Of a DNA stretch of 64,000 nucleotides, positions 17,168-25,472 are shown piece by piece. Under the pieces are notes generated by a model that was not told the origin of the DNA, did no database searches, and worked only from the letters and a program-made list of their open reading frames with translations. The DNA lies in contig JAUVHV010000001.1 of NCBI GenBank assembly GCA_030593065.1, forward strand, positions 145,965-209,964, in the 5' to 3' direction. Position 1 is the first letter of the stretch, and every line of letters begins with the position of its first letter. Position numbers and translations under genes: made by a program. The stretch is from Candidatus Omnitrophota bacterium (GTDB lineage: Bacteria; Omnitrophota; Gorgyraeia; JABMRG01).

Positions 17168-17258
17168 GGAGAGGTCGCATAGCCCGGTTGAGTGCGCGTG
17201 CTTGGAGTGCACGTAGGCCCTTTGGGCCTCCAGGGTTCGAATCCCTGCCTCTCCGCCA
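17168..17258 (+). tRNA. tRNA-Ser (anticodon GGA)
   Basis: Acceptor GGAGAGG/CCTCTCC, anticodon stem CGTGC/GCACG with loop ttGGAgt, variable arm TAGGCCCTTTGGGCCTC identical to that of tRNA-Ser(CGA), GGTTCGAATCC, CCA encoded. Confidence 0.85.
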
Positions 17259-17401
17259 TACTTTTCAAGAGGTGTTCTAATACCTCGTCGAAACCTACCA
17301 AAAACATCATAACTCCTACAAAAAACAAGTAGTTACGTTGCAAGTCTACTCAAGTTTTATCGAGTTATTGCAATAGGCCAGAATTGCCAATTTAGGCGAT
17401 T

Positions 17402-17956
17402 TTGGTGGCTGAGTGGTGGTCAAAAACTGACCATCATGGCTTGTATCGACCTATGCCTAAAATAGTGAGGGGAGGAGTTATGGGTAGAAGAGAATATAGA
17501 GAAGCATGGGGCAGTTGGTTGGGGAAGTATTATTGGGATTTTTTTATAACATTAACTTTTAAAGCCAAGCAAACGATTAGCGGCGCTAAGCAGAAGGCGC
17601 ATAGTTTTTTGAAAAAGCTAAACAAGAAATCTGCTTTTTTTCTCGTGGTAGAGCAAGACGCCAGTAGGCAGAATGTTCATATCCATGTCCTGTTAACTCA
17701 AGCAGGAAATTTAAGCAAAGAGTCCATAGAAAAGTCTTGGAGGTCAAAGCATGGTATAGCACAAGTTTTACCCTATGACATCGATTTAGGAGCGAATTAT
17801 TATATTACAAAGTTGCTGGATACTGATAAGGCAGATTGGGATATGGAGCTTAAAGAGAATATGAAGACAACAAAAGAGGTAAAAGCAAAAATTGCAGCTA
17901 AGCTAAAACCATACTATGAAAACGGAATGTTAAAAGGATATAGAATACGTCTCTAA
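17402..17956 (+). CDS. HUH-superfamily rolling-circle replication initiator (Rep)-like protein
   Basis: Motif I FFITLTF, motif II HIHVLL (HUH), motif III YYITK (catalytic Tyr). True start may be an internal Met (MGRREYR). Confidence 0.45.
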   Translation: MVAEWWSKTDHHGLYRPMPKIVRGGVMGRREYREAWGSWLGKYYWDFFITLTFKAKQTISGAKQKAHSFLKKLNKKSAFFLVVEQDASRQNVHIHVLLTQAGNLSKESIEKSWRSKHGIAQVLPYDIDLGANYYITKLLDTDKADWDMELKENMKTTKEVKAKIAAKLKPYYENGMLKGYRIRL

Positions 17957-18061
17957 GGCTACTGTTTGTCTCTGTTTGGACGTTTTTAATGCAGTAAAGG
18001 ATTTTACCTTTTCAGATTTTAAAAACCCAACGTAGCGGCTCTCTGAAGTTTTTAAAGTTGC

Positions 18062-18090
18062 TTGCCATTACATATCTTAAGAGTTATAAT
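18062..18090 (+). promoter_or_regulatory. Strong sigma70-like promoter TTGCCA-17-TATAAT driving the small ORF at 18117
   Basis: TTGCCA 18062-18067, 17-nt spacer, perfect TATAAT 18085-18090, followed by AAGGAGG RBS at 18104-18110. Confidence 0.45.
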
Positions 18091-18159
18091 AAAAGTCTAA
18101 AATAAGGAGGTGTGTTATGGCAAAAGGGAATACACGGAAAGCAGGAAGAAGTGCAAAAA

Positions 18160-18209
18160 CAGGTAGGTTCACAACAATCAAAAACAGGTAGGTTCACAAC
18201 AATCAAAAA
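18160..18209 (+). repeat. Perfect 25-bp tandem duplication (CAGGTAGGTTCACAACAATCAAAAA x2)
   Basis: Two identical adjacent copies at 18160-18184 and 18185-18209. They lie inside a small well-expressed ORF (ATG 18117) and shift its frame. Confidence 0.85.
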
Positions 18210-18406
18210 AGCCAGAGAGCAGAAAGATACTCATGTTGTTGAGACAATAAGAAAGAGAAAAAAGTAAGTAGGCTTAGAATATATTAAATGCTCTGTTGCA
18301 GTTTAGGCTTTTAGTTTTAAGATACCAAGCAAGGTTAGAGAGAGCAGGCACATCTTTTATAGCAATACCATATATATCTTCCCAAGTAAGATGCGAGAAT
18401 CTCTTC

Positions 18407-22984: not shown

Positions 22985-23220
22985 GTGAGCTCTCTGGAAA
23001 GGGGTTTATAGGTATAATAATTAGGGAGTAGGAAACACAAGGAGCCCAACAAAGGCTTCACCAAATGCTCATTTTGAGTATGGGGCTTGTATCAGAGTAT
23101 GCATAGAGAGGGCAAAAATATTTTTACTCATTGAAAACAAAGAAGTTACGTCAAAAAAGCCACAAATCGTATTAAACTTTTTTGGCTAAATAGGTATAAT
23201 AAGGTAAAGGAGGTGTAGGA

Positions 23221-23403
23221 ATGACATCAGCAGACATTTTAATGGTAGAGGATATAGCTCAGATTTTAAGGATATCGCAGAATACGATACACAGTAGGCG
23301 ATGGCAGGAGAAGTCCGGCTGTCCCCTTTTCAAGAAGGGTAAACGGCTCTATGCTATAGCTACAGAGTTTTGGAGATGGTTTAGGAGCGATTCGGTAAAA
23401 TGA
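23221..23403 (+). CDS. Excisionase / DNA-binding HTH protein (Xis-like)
   Basis: 60 aa. LMVEDIAQILRISQNTIHSRRWQEK resembles the excisionase-family MerR-like HTH. Overlaps the start of the integrase gene by 4 nt. Confidence 0.5.
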   Translation: MTSADILMVEDIAQILRISQNTIHSRRWQEKSGCPLFKKGKRLYAIATEFWRWFRSDSVK

Positions 23404-24491
23404 AGAATAGAGATGGCGTCAGACAGTTAGGAAAGGGCTTATATGAGGTGAACTTTCGCCCTTTCCCTGGCGCTGATAGGATCTTTAGGAGAGTTAATGT
23501 TCAATCTTTGCAGGAGGCTCGTATAAAAAGAGCAGAGCTATTAGCAGAAAGTAGTCGTTTAGGCAAGCCTTCTGAGTTGCAAAGGACGAGACAGGATAGC
23601 GATATAATTGAATTACAGAAGGTTATAGAAAATGACCTGCTTTCAGATAATAAAGGCAAGAAGACAATTAATAGATTTATATCTTGCTGGAAGACTTTTA
23701 ACCAATTCTTGCGGAAGAAATATTCTGATATAGTTAGTATCAATGAATTGAAAGCAGGTCATTTTAAAGATTATCAAGACTACATTGTTATAGAAAAGCA
23801 AAGAAAGAAAGGCTGGAGAGCAGAGCTTACTATTTTAAAGGCTATTTTTACACGTCTCAGAATAAGGAATTATTGCACAGATGATGCGATAGGAGAGTTA
23901 AATAAGCTAAAGAAGCCACCACGCAACAAAAAGCACTATGAGGATATTCCTGATTTTGCTATAAGAGAAATGCTGACATTTATCGATAAAGATAGGCCAG
24001 ATTATTATGGCCTAACAGTTTTGCTCTATAAATGCGGCTGGCGAATAGAGGAGACGACGCTATTACGCAGAGCAGATATAGAATGGCAAGGGCTTAAGCC
24101 AGGTTCGATATTAATTAGAGGGGAGACCACAAAAACAAAAGTAGAGAGACGTTTTGACATGTTTGATGATGAGTTAGCTCTTGTGATAAGGCGCTATGCA
24201 TTTGATAGAAAAAAGACCACGTGGCTTTTTTCTAATAAGCAAAATGGCAAGATACATGCTGGTCATTATAGAGAATATCTGAAAAAGGTAAGTGGAAATA
24301 TTATGGGAAAAACTATCACGCCTCATTATTTTAGGCATAGACTTTGCACCATAGCAGGTAGAATGAATATGCCGATTAATGATGTTATGGCAATAACGGG
24401 CATACGTGATATAAAGGTTCTTTTGGAATACTACCAGCACACTACAGCAGAGGGGAAAGCGAAAATATTAGCTTTAAATAGCTTAAAGTGA
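23400..24491 (+). CDS. Tyrosine-type site-specific integrase
   Basis: C-terminal catalytic region with R...HxxR...Y (TPHYFRHRLCT ... LLEYYQH). SAM-like N-terminal domain. 363 aa. Confidence 0.8.
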   Translation: MKNRDGVRQLGKGLYEVNFRPFPGADRIFRRVNVQSLQEARIKRAELLAESSRLGKPSELQRTRQDSDIIELQKVIENDLLSDNKGKKTINRFISCWKTFNQFLRKKYSDIVSINELKAGHFKDYQDYIVIEKQRKKGWRAELTILKAIFTRLRIRNYCTDDAIGELNKLKKPPRNKKHYEDIPDFAIREMLTFIDKDRPDYYGLTVLLYKCGWRIEETTLLRRADIEWQGLKPGSILIRGETTKTKVERRFDMFDDELALVIRRYAFDRKKTTWLFSNKQNGKIHAGHYREYLKKVSGNIMGKTITPHYFRHRLCTIAGRMNMPINDVMAITGIRDIKVLLEYYQHTTAEGKAKILALNSLK

Positions 24492-24507
24492 TATAATTAC
24501 AATATAG

Positions 24508-25389
24508 TTGGGAAAGGAGACCAATAATATGTTTATGAAAATATTAGTGATAGGGCTGTTTTTAATCGCAGGTTTATTATTATTACTTACAGCAACTTGG
24601 TTTTATGAATTACCAATTTTACCCTTAAAGAAAATTGTGGGTGCATTAAAAACTCATGAAATAACACTAATGGCTTTATTTAACTTATTTGTAATAGTTA
24701 TAATGTTAATAACTATATTTATAAGTATGGTTTCTTCCCAACAGCAGATTGAAAAGATGCAGGACCAAATTAAATCCGATAAAAAAAATACAGATAGCTA
24801 TATTACTACAACAAAAGATGCTACAGATAAGCAAATAAAAGCTATAAAAGACGCCACTAATAGTCATATAGAAAGGCTTGCAGAAGAGCAGAAGAGAAGA
24901 AGAAAAGAGCTACTGTCAGCTTTGATTTCTGAAATCCAATCTAATATTGAAGAAGGGGATTATTTTTTAAAGCACTTACCACTTACAGAAGATGGGATAA
25001 TATTTTATAATGACTTACCACTTGATATTTTAAACATTAATTTATCTAACAATACGATTACAAGCAAAGTACTATTTGATAAAATTAGAGAATACAAAAA
25101 GGTAATAGTGACGGCTAACAATATGATTCTGAGGGGCAGAGAAAGCGATGTTGATAGATATAACAAAACACAAGAGTTAGTTGGTAAGTGGGAAGGAGCA
25201 AAGAAAGATAGGGATTACAAGTTTGATGACAGCTCTATTAAAGAGATAGATTCTATTCTCTCTAAATTGCCTGAAAAGATTCAAACGCGTAGATGCGAAC
25301 TTTTTCTTATAACGTTTAACTTGATAGGTAATAAGTATAACTTTGTTGATTTGAAACTGAAACTTATAAATTATATGAATGACTTGTAG
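24508..25389 (+). CDS. Hypothetical membrane protein (2 TM plus coiled coil plus unknown C-terminal domain), cargo adjacent to attR
   Basis: Two N-terminal TM helices, a ~70-aa coiled coil (QQQIEKMQDQIKSDKK...), and a C-terminal globular region with no recognisable motif. Confidence 0.3.
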   Translation: MGKETNNMFMKILVIGLFLIAGLLLLLTATWFYELPILPLKKIVGALKTHEITLMALFNLFVIVIMLITIFISMVSSQQQIEKMQDQIKSDKKNTDSYITTTKDATDKQIKAIKDATNSHIERLAEEQKRRRKELLSALISEIQSNIEEGDYFLKHLPLTEDGIIFYNDLPLDILNINLSNNTITSKVLFDKIREYKKVIVTANNMILRGRESDVDRYNKTQELVGKWEGAKKDRDYKFDDSSIKEIDSILSKLPEKIQTRRCELFLITFNLIGNKYNFVDLKLKLINYMNDL

Positions 25390-25453
25390 CAGACTTGAAA
25401 TTTTGGTGGTTTTAACGGTGGTGGGAAGGCTATTTTGAGCTTAAAGCAATGAC

Positions 25454-25472
25454 AATCCCTGCCTCTCCGCCA
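25454..25472 (+). repeat. attR: 19-bp direct repeat of the tRNA-Ser(GGA) 3' end
   Basis: AATCCCTGCCTCTCCGCCA identical to 17240-17258. Confidence 0.8.

Follow-up and report, generated by a model that had tools for sequence, protein, structure and literature searches.

Tycheposons, described in Prochlorococcus and other streamlined marine bacteria, include an excisionase and a 'small serine recombinase' among their hallmark genes (bioRxiv 10.1101/2020.12.28.424599). They are the closest described concept for the element considered here, an 8.2-kb island in the tRNA-Ser(GGA) gene of the window, that is, of the whole 64-kb stretch of DNA that was analysed (contig JAUVHV010000001.1). The likeness is one of gene plan and description: in both cases a small cargo-bearing element with a tyrosine recombinase occupies the 3' end of a tRNA or tmRNA gene. 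An integrase at one end, a replication module at the opposite end and cargo in the centre are found in the window as well as in three contigs with related elements, designated L012, L017 and L025. Moreover, the tandem accretions and degenerate remnants known beside tRNA genes in tycheposons have counterparts in contigs L002 and L020. The two systems differ in several respects. Tycheposons carry primase, helicase or polymerase genes, whereas a HUH replication protein (Rep) is the only replication-type gene of the island. Their integrase faces inward, while that of the island faces outward, with one more gene before the right attachment site (attR). Finally, their cargo serves nutrient acquisition, in contrast to the predicted anti-phage defence found here in an Omnitrophota-like host.

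[quoted passage not shown] Like the island, they integrate into tRNA genes and encode an integrase (Int), an excisionase (Xis) and a rolling-circle initiator, and in both cases integrated and circular forms are possible. An initial annotation of the stretch, made from the sequence alone, had likened the island to AICEs. The tRNA target, the Int/Xis pair and the rolling-circle-type Rep agree with this comparison, but no FtsK-like transfer module and no Kor/Pra regulator were detected among the open reading frames (ORFs) of the element with Pfam, PHROGs, NCBIfam and PADLOC, and the host is not an actinomycete; the likeness is therefore one of analogy only. In addition, the Rep of the island is a stand-alone domain of 158 amino acids (aa), with PF23343 and one weak relaxase match as its only Pfam hits.

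Integrative and mobilizable elements (IMEs) and satellites resembling phage-inducible chromosomal islands (PICIs) or P4 are likewise small integrase islands with a replication function of their own, variable anti-phage cargo and no transfer apparatus. They differ from the island in that no recognised MOB-family relaxase, packaging or capsid-redirecting gene or primase-type replicon was detected in it. For the Rep protein itself, the closest solved structure by both profile and fold is ORF119 of Sulfolobus islandicus rod-shaped virus 1 (SIRV1; 2x3g). Both proteins are tiny stand-alone HUH domains without a helicase, although SIRV1 is a virus of archaea and linear, the two share only about 21% identity, and the Rep of the window has an additional C-terminal helix/strand region (model residues 118–156). 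No published description of this family was found in the literature on PF23343 or on Omnitrophota integrative elements. In its principle, the island is a known kind of element.

A Probable Site-Specific Element in tRNA-Ser(GGA)

The island is probably a small site-specific integrative element residing in the tRNA-Ser(GGA) gene of an Omnitrophota-like host. Its target gene, located at 17168–17258 on the plus strand, is intact according to both ARAGORN and the Rfam tRNA model (47.9 bits). The last 19 nucleotides (nt) of this gene, AATCCCTGCCTCTCCGCCA (17240–17258, plus strand), form the core of the left attachment site (attL), and a second exact copy in direct orientation, at 25454–25472, forms the core of attR. 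These are the only two matches to the 19-mer in the window, even when up to three mismatches are allowed. None of 100 dinucleotide-preserving shuffles gave any match, and the other two tRNA-Ser genes of the window contain none. As a side observation, the window holds three tRNA-Ser genes (TGA, CGA and GGA) within 13 kb (4679–17258).

The same core bounds the related elements of L012 and L017. When their ends are aligned, homology between the elements extends on either side as far as the core and is lost directly past it, which delimits the element independently of the repeat. The 19-bp cores are the boundaries of the element. GC content, about 36%, shows no shift across it. The size of about 8.2 kb, the location in tRNA-Ser(GGA) and the perfect 19-bp repeat of the tRNA 3' end had all been proposed in the initial annotation and were confirmed; relatives carry the repeat as well, and the 19-mer is no chromosomal repeat of the dispersed kind. 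The comparative evidence also supports the broader picture drawn there, of a site-specific element with a HUH Rep and Int/Xis and without conjugation genes. In effect, the features expected of an element of the tRNA-targeting tyrosine-integrase type are present: repeats of the tRNA end, an intact tRNA, a catalytic Int, and homologues with the same ends elsewhere.

Related Elements and the Conserved Backbone

Relatives were gathered from the contigs of close Rep homologues, of which there are three (71–76% identity), and by a search with the left-arm pattern, yielding four more elements, all of them from metagenomes other than that of the window. The backbone order common to them is Rep, nuclease-like gene, short serine recombinase, Xis and Int. 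The element of L012 measures 6.8 kb, lies in the same neighbourhood as that of the window (PabBC, a DUF3108 protein and tRNA-Ser(GGA)) and has its cores at 2261–2279 and 9052–9070. In L017, tRNA-Ser(GGA) occupies 523–612, and the last 16 nt of the core, which were used for the search, are found at 597–612 and 10726–10741, giving an element of 10.1 kb. The contigs L002 and L003, from samples of the Joint Genome Institute (JGI), carry the core at the right end of the element. L025 has a Rep only 44% identical to that of the window and the same gene order; it lies beside smpB in the 3' end of a tmRNA gene, where a perfect 19-bp repeat peculiar to it, at 9740 and 15620, forms its bounds.

Traces of repeated insertion are visible around some of these elements. 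Past the element of L002 (9723–11364), and also in L003, there is a 1.6-kb mini-island with GIY-YIG and Fic genes, closed by a further core copy and some 50 nt of repeated flank. This arrangement points to a tandem accretion at the same site. At the left junction, the flank in L002 (2300–2414), L003 (1040–1174) and a further contig, L009 (1–80), holds CACAAGTAGTTGTA, like the left arm of the element, and ends in ...TTCGACCCGCCA, and 11-bp periodic GGCGCCAAAGG/GGCATTAAAGG repeats occur upstream of the junction. To judge from its sequence, this flank may be a relic of the left arm of an earlier element.

The backbone proteins are well conserved. Identity to relatives is 71–76% for Rep (158 aa), 71–82% for the nuclease-like protein (358 aa), 86–92% for Xis (57–60 aa) and 63–68% for Int (363–364 aa), while the serine recombinase, 262–264 aa long in the window, L012, L017 and L002/L003, shows 69–93%. 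The pairwise ratio of nonsynonymous to synonymous substitution rates (dN/dS), taken where dS is unsaturated, is 0.05–0.13 for all five backbone genes (Rep and Xis, 0.05–0.13 each; serine recombinase, 0.08–0.10). The backbone, serine recombinase included, is under purifying selection. At the nucleotide level, the identities are mosaic: the serine recombinase gene of the window is 90–91% identical to those of L012 and L017, in comparison to about 75% for rep and about 69% for int (91%, 75% and 69%, respectively, for L017). This mosaic suggests recombination between elements of the family. Judging from these alignments and from the gene content discussed below, the element is a member of a family with a fixed backbone and exchangeable, mostly defence-like cargo.

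The Stand-Alone HUH Rep

The rep gene (17480–17956, plus strand) encodes a stand-alone HUH protein of 158 aa, a putative rolling-circle initiator. It matches PF23343 (REP_ORF2-G2P) with 31.0–31.4 bits, above the gathering cut-off of 27.8, and it contains the motifs FxTLTF, HxHxL and YYxxK, so that the HUH Rep-like gene of the initial annotation is borne out. An exhaustive HMMER scan of 1.84 billion representatives (E ≤ 1e-3) revealed a family of 774 cluster representatives. Most of the 150 listed are 120–200 aa long, and no source gives any member a name more specific than 'hypothetical protein'. An alignment of 50 sequences displays the classical rolling-circle motifs FxTLTF, HxHxL and GAxYYxxK. 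W19, T24, E58, H67, H69, G92, Y108 and K111 are invariant in it, and T26 is present in at least 90% of the sequences. PF23343 was matched by 48 of the 50, and two gave sub-threshold relaxase hits.

Structural comparisons lead in the same direction. The SIRV1 Rep (2x3g, 119 aa) is the sole solved structure with a significant sequence-profile E-value (5e-6). The AlphaFold (AF2) model of the window protein has a pLDDT of 93.8, and its neighbours in the Protein Data Bank (PDB), found with Foldseek, are SIRV1 ORF119, Rep of adeno-associated virus (AAV), parvovirus NS1, the proteins of the geminivirus WDV and the circovirus PCV2, and RepB, with E-values that are weak and mutually consistent. Most BFVD neighbours are unnamed; the named ones, at E about 1e-7, comprise a microvirus replication initiator together with two replication-associated proteins from Caudovirales/Siphoviridae. 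Distant relatives with 26–30% identity occur on IMG/VR contigs of 3–11 kb, and tblastn with Rep gave no match in GenBank phages or PLSDB plasmids. Taken together, profile, motifs and fold neighbours argue that the protein is in all likelihood a Rep-class HUH nuclease domain without a helicase.

The association of this Rep with integrases is not restricted to the close relatives. All three distant Rep homologues on long contigs (L025, L026/L027 and L028) adjoin a tyrosine integrase and a tRNA or tmRNA gene; the contigs of P0005 and P0007, the nearest of the distant homologues, are too short to tell. An Xis of the HTH_17 type was called beside Rep in L027 and L028. In L026/L027, from Acidobacteriota, a 210-aa Rep relative and a tyrosine integrase lie at tRNA-Pro(CGG), with type I restriction–modification (R–M) cargo on the other side. 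In L028, also from Acidobacteriota, the Rep relative, the HTH_17 Xis and the tyrosine integrase lie at tRNA-Pro(CGG) as well, with Thoeris and methyltransferase cargo. These contigs indicate that the Rep–Xis–Int combination reaches beyond Omnitrophota.

Integrase, Excisionase and the Short Serine Recombinase

Both the excisionase and the tyrosine integrase that had been predicted are present. The Xis-like helix-turn-helix (HTH) protein of 60 aa (23221–23403, plus strand) has a weak HTH_17 match, and its stop codon overlaps the start of int. The integrase of 363 aa (23400–24491, plus strand) matches PF00589 with an E-value of 6e-16, and its HxxR motif and C-terminal YY align to Int of Tn1549, which provides the expected catalytic motifs.

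Upstream of them, a backbone gene at 22196–22984 (plus strand) encodes a short serine recombinase of 262 aa. It had been described as a fragment, and this description proved wrong. The protein contains the catalytic domain (PF00239, 3e-37) and the recombinase domain (PF07508, 2.5e-17) of large serine recombinases, and it ends at residue 262 without the C-terminal zinc ribbon or coiled coil. Its alignment to the integrases TP901-1 and SPbeta SprA covers their N-terminal 240–250 residues, and the catalytic motif YxRVS is present. A search of 5.8 billion proteins (E ≤ 1e-20) returned 115 homologue clusters, most of them 250–280 aa long with Resolvase and Recombinase domains. The zinc-ribbon domain PF13408 was found only in four homologues of about 450 aa and in none of those of about 260 aa. 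Several homologues carry the names Omnitrophica or Omnitrophota, and another group belongs to Paenibacillus. Length, identity, dN/dS and homologues thus define a full-length member of a widespread short family. A 174-aa ORF that follows the serine recombinase gene in L002 was considered as its missing C-terminal half and rejected, as it has no family match and is absent from the other elements.

The same short serine recombinase occurs in two other Omnitrophota islands, L029 and L030, where it is followed by a small HTH gene and a tyrosine integrase. The defence-like cargo upstream of the recombinase differs between them and consists of a SIR2-STAND NTPase and methyltransferases in one island and of HD and helicase genes with an REase-ARP homologue in the other. 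No Rep was found within 9 kb in L029 or L030.

The Nuclease-Like Gene, Cargo Slots and a Small ORF

Between rep and the cargo lies the backbone gene for a PD-(D/E)xK nuclease-like protein of the REase-ARP family (18274–19363, minus strand), which has 358 aa in relatives. In the window the gene is frameshifted, and blastp and tblastn found 71–81% identity to relatives across the two frames. The L012 protein matches PF22558 with an E-value of 1.4e-8. A perfect TTGACA-18-TATAAT promoter precedes the gene at 19398–19369.

The cargo proper, between the nuclease operon and the serine recombinase, is different in every element. In the window it begins with a C-protein-like HTH controller of 71 aa (19429–19644, plus strand; PADLOC Control_protein 4.7e-15, Pfam HTH_19 and HTH_3), followed by two adjacent genes that match both models of the PD-lambda-5 system. 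These are PD-lambda-5 A (19766–21121, plus strand; PADLOC 3.6e-143) and PD-lambda-5 B, a Dam-type N6-adenine methyltransferase (21125–21985, plus strand; PADLOC 9e-125, Pfam MethyltransfD12 7.5e-19). By these model matches, the C-protein and PD-lambda-5 genes are predicted anti-phage cargo. PD-lambda-5 was described as a compacted, prophage-borne system resembling R–M combined with abortive infection, with broad protection (PMC9519451). In contrast to that original, the system of the window is preceded by a C-protein-like gene and lies on a non-phage island in a distant phylum. The initial annotation had recognised an R–M-like module here. The methyltransferase and the controller are indeed present, but the system is PD-lambda-5 A/B with a C-protein, and the frameshifted nuclease-like gene is separate from it.

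In the relatives, the slot is occupied by a trypsin-like, LmuA-like protease (L012), a RelA/SpoT protein matching PDC-S33 (L017) or an SDH/NfeD protease with no defence-model match (L002); the cargo of the window, L012 and L017 thus has such matches. In L017, rep is additionally separated from the nuclease-like gene by an OLD/AriA-like ATPase. Past int, next to attR, there is a second variable slot. In the window it holds a membrane/coiled-coil protein with two transmembrane segments (24508–25389, plus strand; 293 aa, or 286 aa from the ATG at 24529). In agreement with the membrane cargo gene lacking a known function that had been reported, this protein has no family match in Pfam, PHROGs, NCBIfam or PADLOC. 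In relatives the slot contains unrelated ORFs, including a RES toxin in L017.

A small ORF found in this element only (18117–18267, plus strand) begins behind an AAGGAGG ribosome-binding site and a sigma-70-like promoter with 11 of 12 positions matching, so that the strong signals noted at first are present; that it is 'strongly expressed' would be a guess from sequence. At the corresponding position, L012 has only a 99-nt gap and no ORF. The ORF contains an exact 25-bp tandem duplication (18154–18203, CAAAAACAGGTAGGTTCACAACAAT twice). A Logan contig from the same sample ends where a k = 31 graph predicts for a 25-bp repeat, which fits a real duplication. The repeat was also considered as a set of iterons, and this was ruled out by its position inside the small ORF, the frame of which it shifts.

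Conserved Non-Coding Motifs

The left arm (17259–17479, plus strand) is conserved and non-coding, and it represents a candidate attP arm, promoter or origin. Straight after the core, a short hairpin at 17269–17286 keeps its pairing among four elements through two compensatory changes, which no other part of the arm displays, and it may serve as a terminator of the tRNA transcript. Besides the tRNA itself, Rfam gave a single hit here, which is below threshold and lies inside the tRNA on the opposite strand.

Pairs of TGGTGG boxes, one helical turn apart, are located at 17403–17425, about 145 nt inside attL, and at 25404–25428, about 30 nt before attR, the latter within the conserved right arm (25389–25453, plus strand) defined by alignment and motif scan. 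Exactly two pairs per element, on the same strand, occur in all four close elements, with number and position kept, and L025 has analogous GTGGTGAAA (GTGGTG) box pairs at the same relative positions. The paired boxes are likely candidates for arm-type integrase sites of an attP of about 250 bp.

Another duplicated motif, GGCTTGTATC-N4-TATG, is found upstream of rep at 17439–17460, and the second copy, GGGCTTGTATC-N4-TATG, upstream of xis–int at 23085–23106 (plus strand). Again, each of the four close elements has exactly two copies, both on one strand, and the copy upstream of rep is found also in L025, in spite of its diverged Rep. The motif might act as a common operator or promoter element, or it might be recognised by Rep. 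A separate feature, confined to this element, is a 20-nt inverted repeat with 95% complementarity between the rep leader (17451–17470) and the int coding region (24321–24340).

On its right side the cargo slot has a sharp border. The four elements become homologous about 17 nt past the stop codon of PD-lambda-5 B, and about 190 nt of conserved non-coding DNA (22002–22195, plus strand) runs from there to the start of the serine recombinase gene. This segment includes a perfect hairpin plus T-run (AGCCTAACTT...AAGTTAGGCT; 22045–22086) and a TTGACA promoter-like site.

Flanking Genes and Variation of the Locus

Upstream of the tRNA lie PabB/PabC and a DUF3108 protein, and downstream of attR a Cache/HAMP histidine kinase, a response regulator and a radical-SAM enzyme. 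The switch from housekeeping to mobile gene content at the tRNA, pointed out in the initial annotation, is therefore real, with the histidine kinase marking the chromosome beyond the element. The nearest genome match of the flanking PabBC is a Candidatus Omnitrophota metagenome-assembled genome.

Comparison of the locus with other genomes had been recommended as a way of finding an empty site, and it revealed a remnant. In the syntenic contig L020, the three tRNA-Ser genes, PabBC and DUF3108 are all present. At 8461–8625, the tRNA-Ser(GGA) gene is followed by only 72 nt of the left end of the element, beyond which lie glycosyltransferase, deacetylase and methyltransferase genes, ordinary genes of the cell envelope. 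This remnant is the scar of a lost element, and the locus varies between genomes. Exact-protein look-ups of both flanking genes returned only the same sample, SRR18936876, assembled in pieces.

In the Logan assembly of that sample, contig L014 ends at the last base of the attL core and contig L016 starts 30 nt earlier, which implies that the assembly graph branches at the attL core. Either other forms of the attachment site or related species sharing the tRNA could cause this branching. As proof of coexisting attB and attP sites the break was rejected. It is non-specific, since related species share the 3' half of the tRNA, and it is weakened further by the contig across attR, which is unbroken.

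Proposed Life Cycle and Alternative Explanations

Integration by Int is very probable. Int would recombine the core of attP, identical to the last 19 nt of the tRNA, with the tRNA gene, and an intact tRNA would be regenerated at attL. Xis together with Int would excise a circle, for which the expected attP junction is GAGCTTAAAGCAATGAC-AATCCCTGCCTCTCCGCCA-TACTTTTCAAGAGGTG, leaving behind an attB site expected to read CCAGGGTTCG-AATCCCTGCCTCTCCGCCA-CTGGCTCGATGAAAAAAATTCC. As the plus strand carries xis, int, the last gene and also rep, excision would put rep downstream of the int operon, and in the circle xis–int and the last gene would read through attP in the direction of rep. In the archaeal virus SNJ2, replication is controlled by a similar arrangement that depends on excision (PMC13107129). 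The HUH Rep would then nick an origin in the left arm, and rolling-circle replication with the helicase and polymerase of the host would give a transient plasmid-like stage. Helicase-less plasmid Reps of the pMV158 and pC194 families replicate with a host helicase. The balance tips slightly in favour of such a replicating circular stage. The short serine recombinase would resolve multimers or act at the conserved cargo-border site, and the cargo would shield the host from phage and in this way pay for carriage of the element. The route from cell to cell would not be encoded by the element, in which no relaxase of a recognised family, coupling protein, FtsK-like translocase, capsid, terminase or Zot-like ATPase was found; helper phage, vesicles, transformation or mobilisation might provide it.

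A number of observations weigh against a mobile, replicating element. No attP or circular contig was recovered: the left-arm pattern gave no viral contig and five from metagenomes, each of them either integrated or partial. Neither an origin nor a nick site came to light, for which the left arm and the GGGCTTGTATC motif with its two copies are candidates only, and as DNA the left arm folds no better than shuffled sequences (z = -1.0), which speaks against a structured origin or RNA. A scan of the genome collection with PabBC for a clean empty site gave a single Omnitrophota contig, 50% identical and without the tRNA, so that a clean empty site sharing the downstream flank is missing from the results. 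At the left junction of L002, L003 and L009, neither ARAGORN nor Rfam found a tRNA or tmRNA. To these may be added the outward orientation of Int ahead of a further gene, and the fact that the role assigned to the serine recombinase, whether multimer resolution or action at the cargo border, is a guess. Finally, this copy may be decaying, with two genes damaged. A +1 frameshift located in a G8 run (C8 on the plus strand, 18463–18470) interrupts the nuclease-like gene, and the 25-bp duplication reduces the small ORF from about 41 codons to 24.

The last point leads to the proposal that this copy is an immobilised, decaying island, by now inherited chromosomal DNA with a defence system. Apart from the two frameshifted genes, it would account for the absence of the 104–120-aa partner gene that precedes the nuclease gene in relatives and for the lack of an attP or circle in viral and metagenome collections, and the scar in L020 shows that such elements do decay. 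On the other hand, both cores are perfect, both arms keep all conserved motifs, and Rep, serine recombinase, Xis and Int are intact and 63–93% identical to relatives with dN/dS of about 0.1. Moreover, the C8/G8 run, absent from relatives, is the longest G/C homopolymer of the window, and the frameshift may reflect an error of sequencing, reversible phase variation or a fixed inactivation. An immobilised island is quite unlikely on this evidence. A satellite or remnant of a single-stranded DNA phage, filamentous or microvirus-like and packaged by a helper in the manner of RS1 with CTXphi, is very unlikely. It would be in line with the naming of PF23343 after the replication-associated proteins ORF2 and G2P, with the microvirus initiator and the two tailed-phage proteins among the named BFVD neighbours, and with distant Rep relatives on the small IMG/VR contigs. 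In Pf-type filamentous prophages, too, a rolling-circle replication initiator is found at tRNA genes together with an excisionase and a tyrosine integrase. Nevertheless, neither the window element nor its relatives contain a detectable gene for a Zot/pI-like ATPase, coat protein, capsid, terminase or terS, and the backbone conserves a nuclease-like gene and a serine recombinase instead. Additionally, the viral contig collection held no family member with the left-arm pattern, and the tblastn search of GenBank phages was empty.

The third possibility concerns the HUH protein itself, which might be a relaxase. The island would then be an IME, nicked at an origin of transfer (oriT), and its single-stranded DNA would be moved by a co-resident conjugative system. 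The lack of transfer machinery of its own is compatible with this, as are weak Pfam hits to the MobA/VirD2 relaxase nuclease domain (the window protein at E 0.013, one of two further members with such hits at 1e-4), and in IMEs of Firmicutes, Rep-related proteins serve as relaxases (PMC5357655, PMC5704250). However, the relaxase score of the window protein is below threshold (16 bits against 24.6), the curated Pfam family matched by 48 of 50 members is one of Reps, and the top neighbours in sequence and fold are viral and plasmid Reps with no relaxase among them. No coupling protein or mating-pore gene is present in the element or the window either. A relaxase-driven IME is thus unlikely, and a site-specific integrative element with a Rep-class initiator is the preferred explanation.

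Implications

Characterised mobile elements are almost absent from Omnitrophota and similar lineages. The analysis defines a compact element family in this uncultured phylum, and such an element offers a handle on how defence systems move there. Its parts are small and separable, namely a 158-aa Rep, a 60-aa Xis, a 363-aa Int, a 262-aa serine recombinase and a 19-bp core, and they could be tested in vitro and perhaps be developed into genetic tools. Through the link to integrases, a large orphan family of tiny HUH proteins gains a likely context. The form of about 260 aa among the 'large' serine recombinases turns out to be a conserved family situated at a cargo hotspot, and not debris.

A wider, more tentative proposal, possible and yet rather doubtful, is that these elements belong to a widespread undescribed class of small 'integrative-replicative' islands. 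Members would combine a stand-alone HUH Rep of about 130–210 aa with Xis and a tyrosine integrase, those of Omnitrophota having in addition a dedicated short serine recombinase at the cargo-slot edge, and they would ferry anti-phage systems. If this were true, such islands would serve uncultured bacteria without known plasmids or conjugation, and the serine recombinase could swap cargo cassettes at the conserved site directly upstream of its own gene.

Elsewhere in the window, well to the right of the element, a single ORF of 2953 aa extends over 49990–58851.

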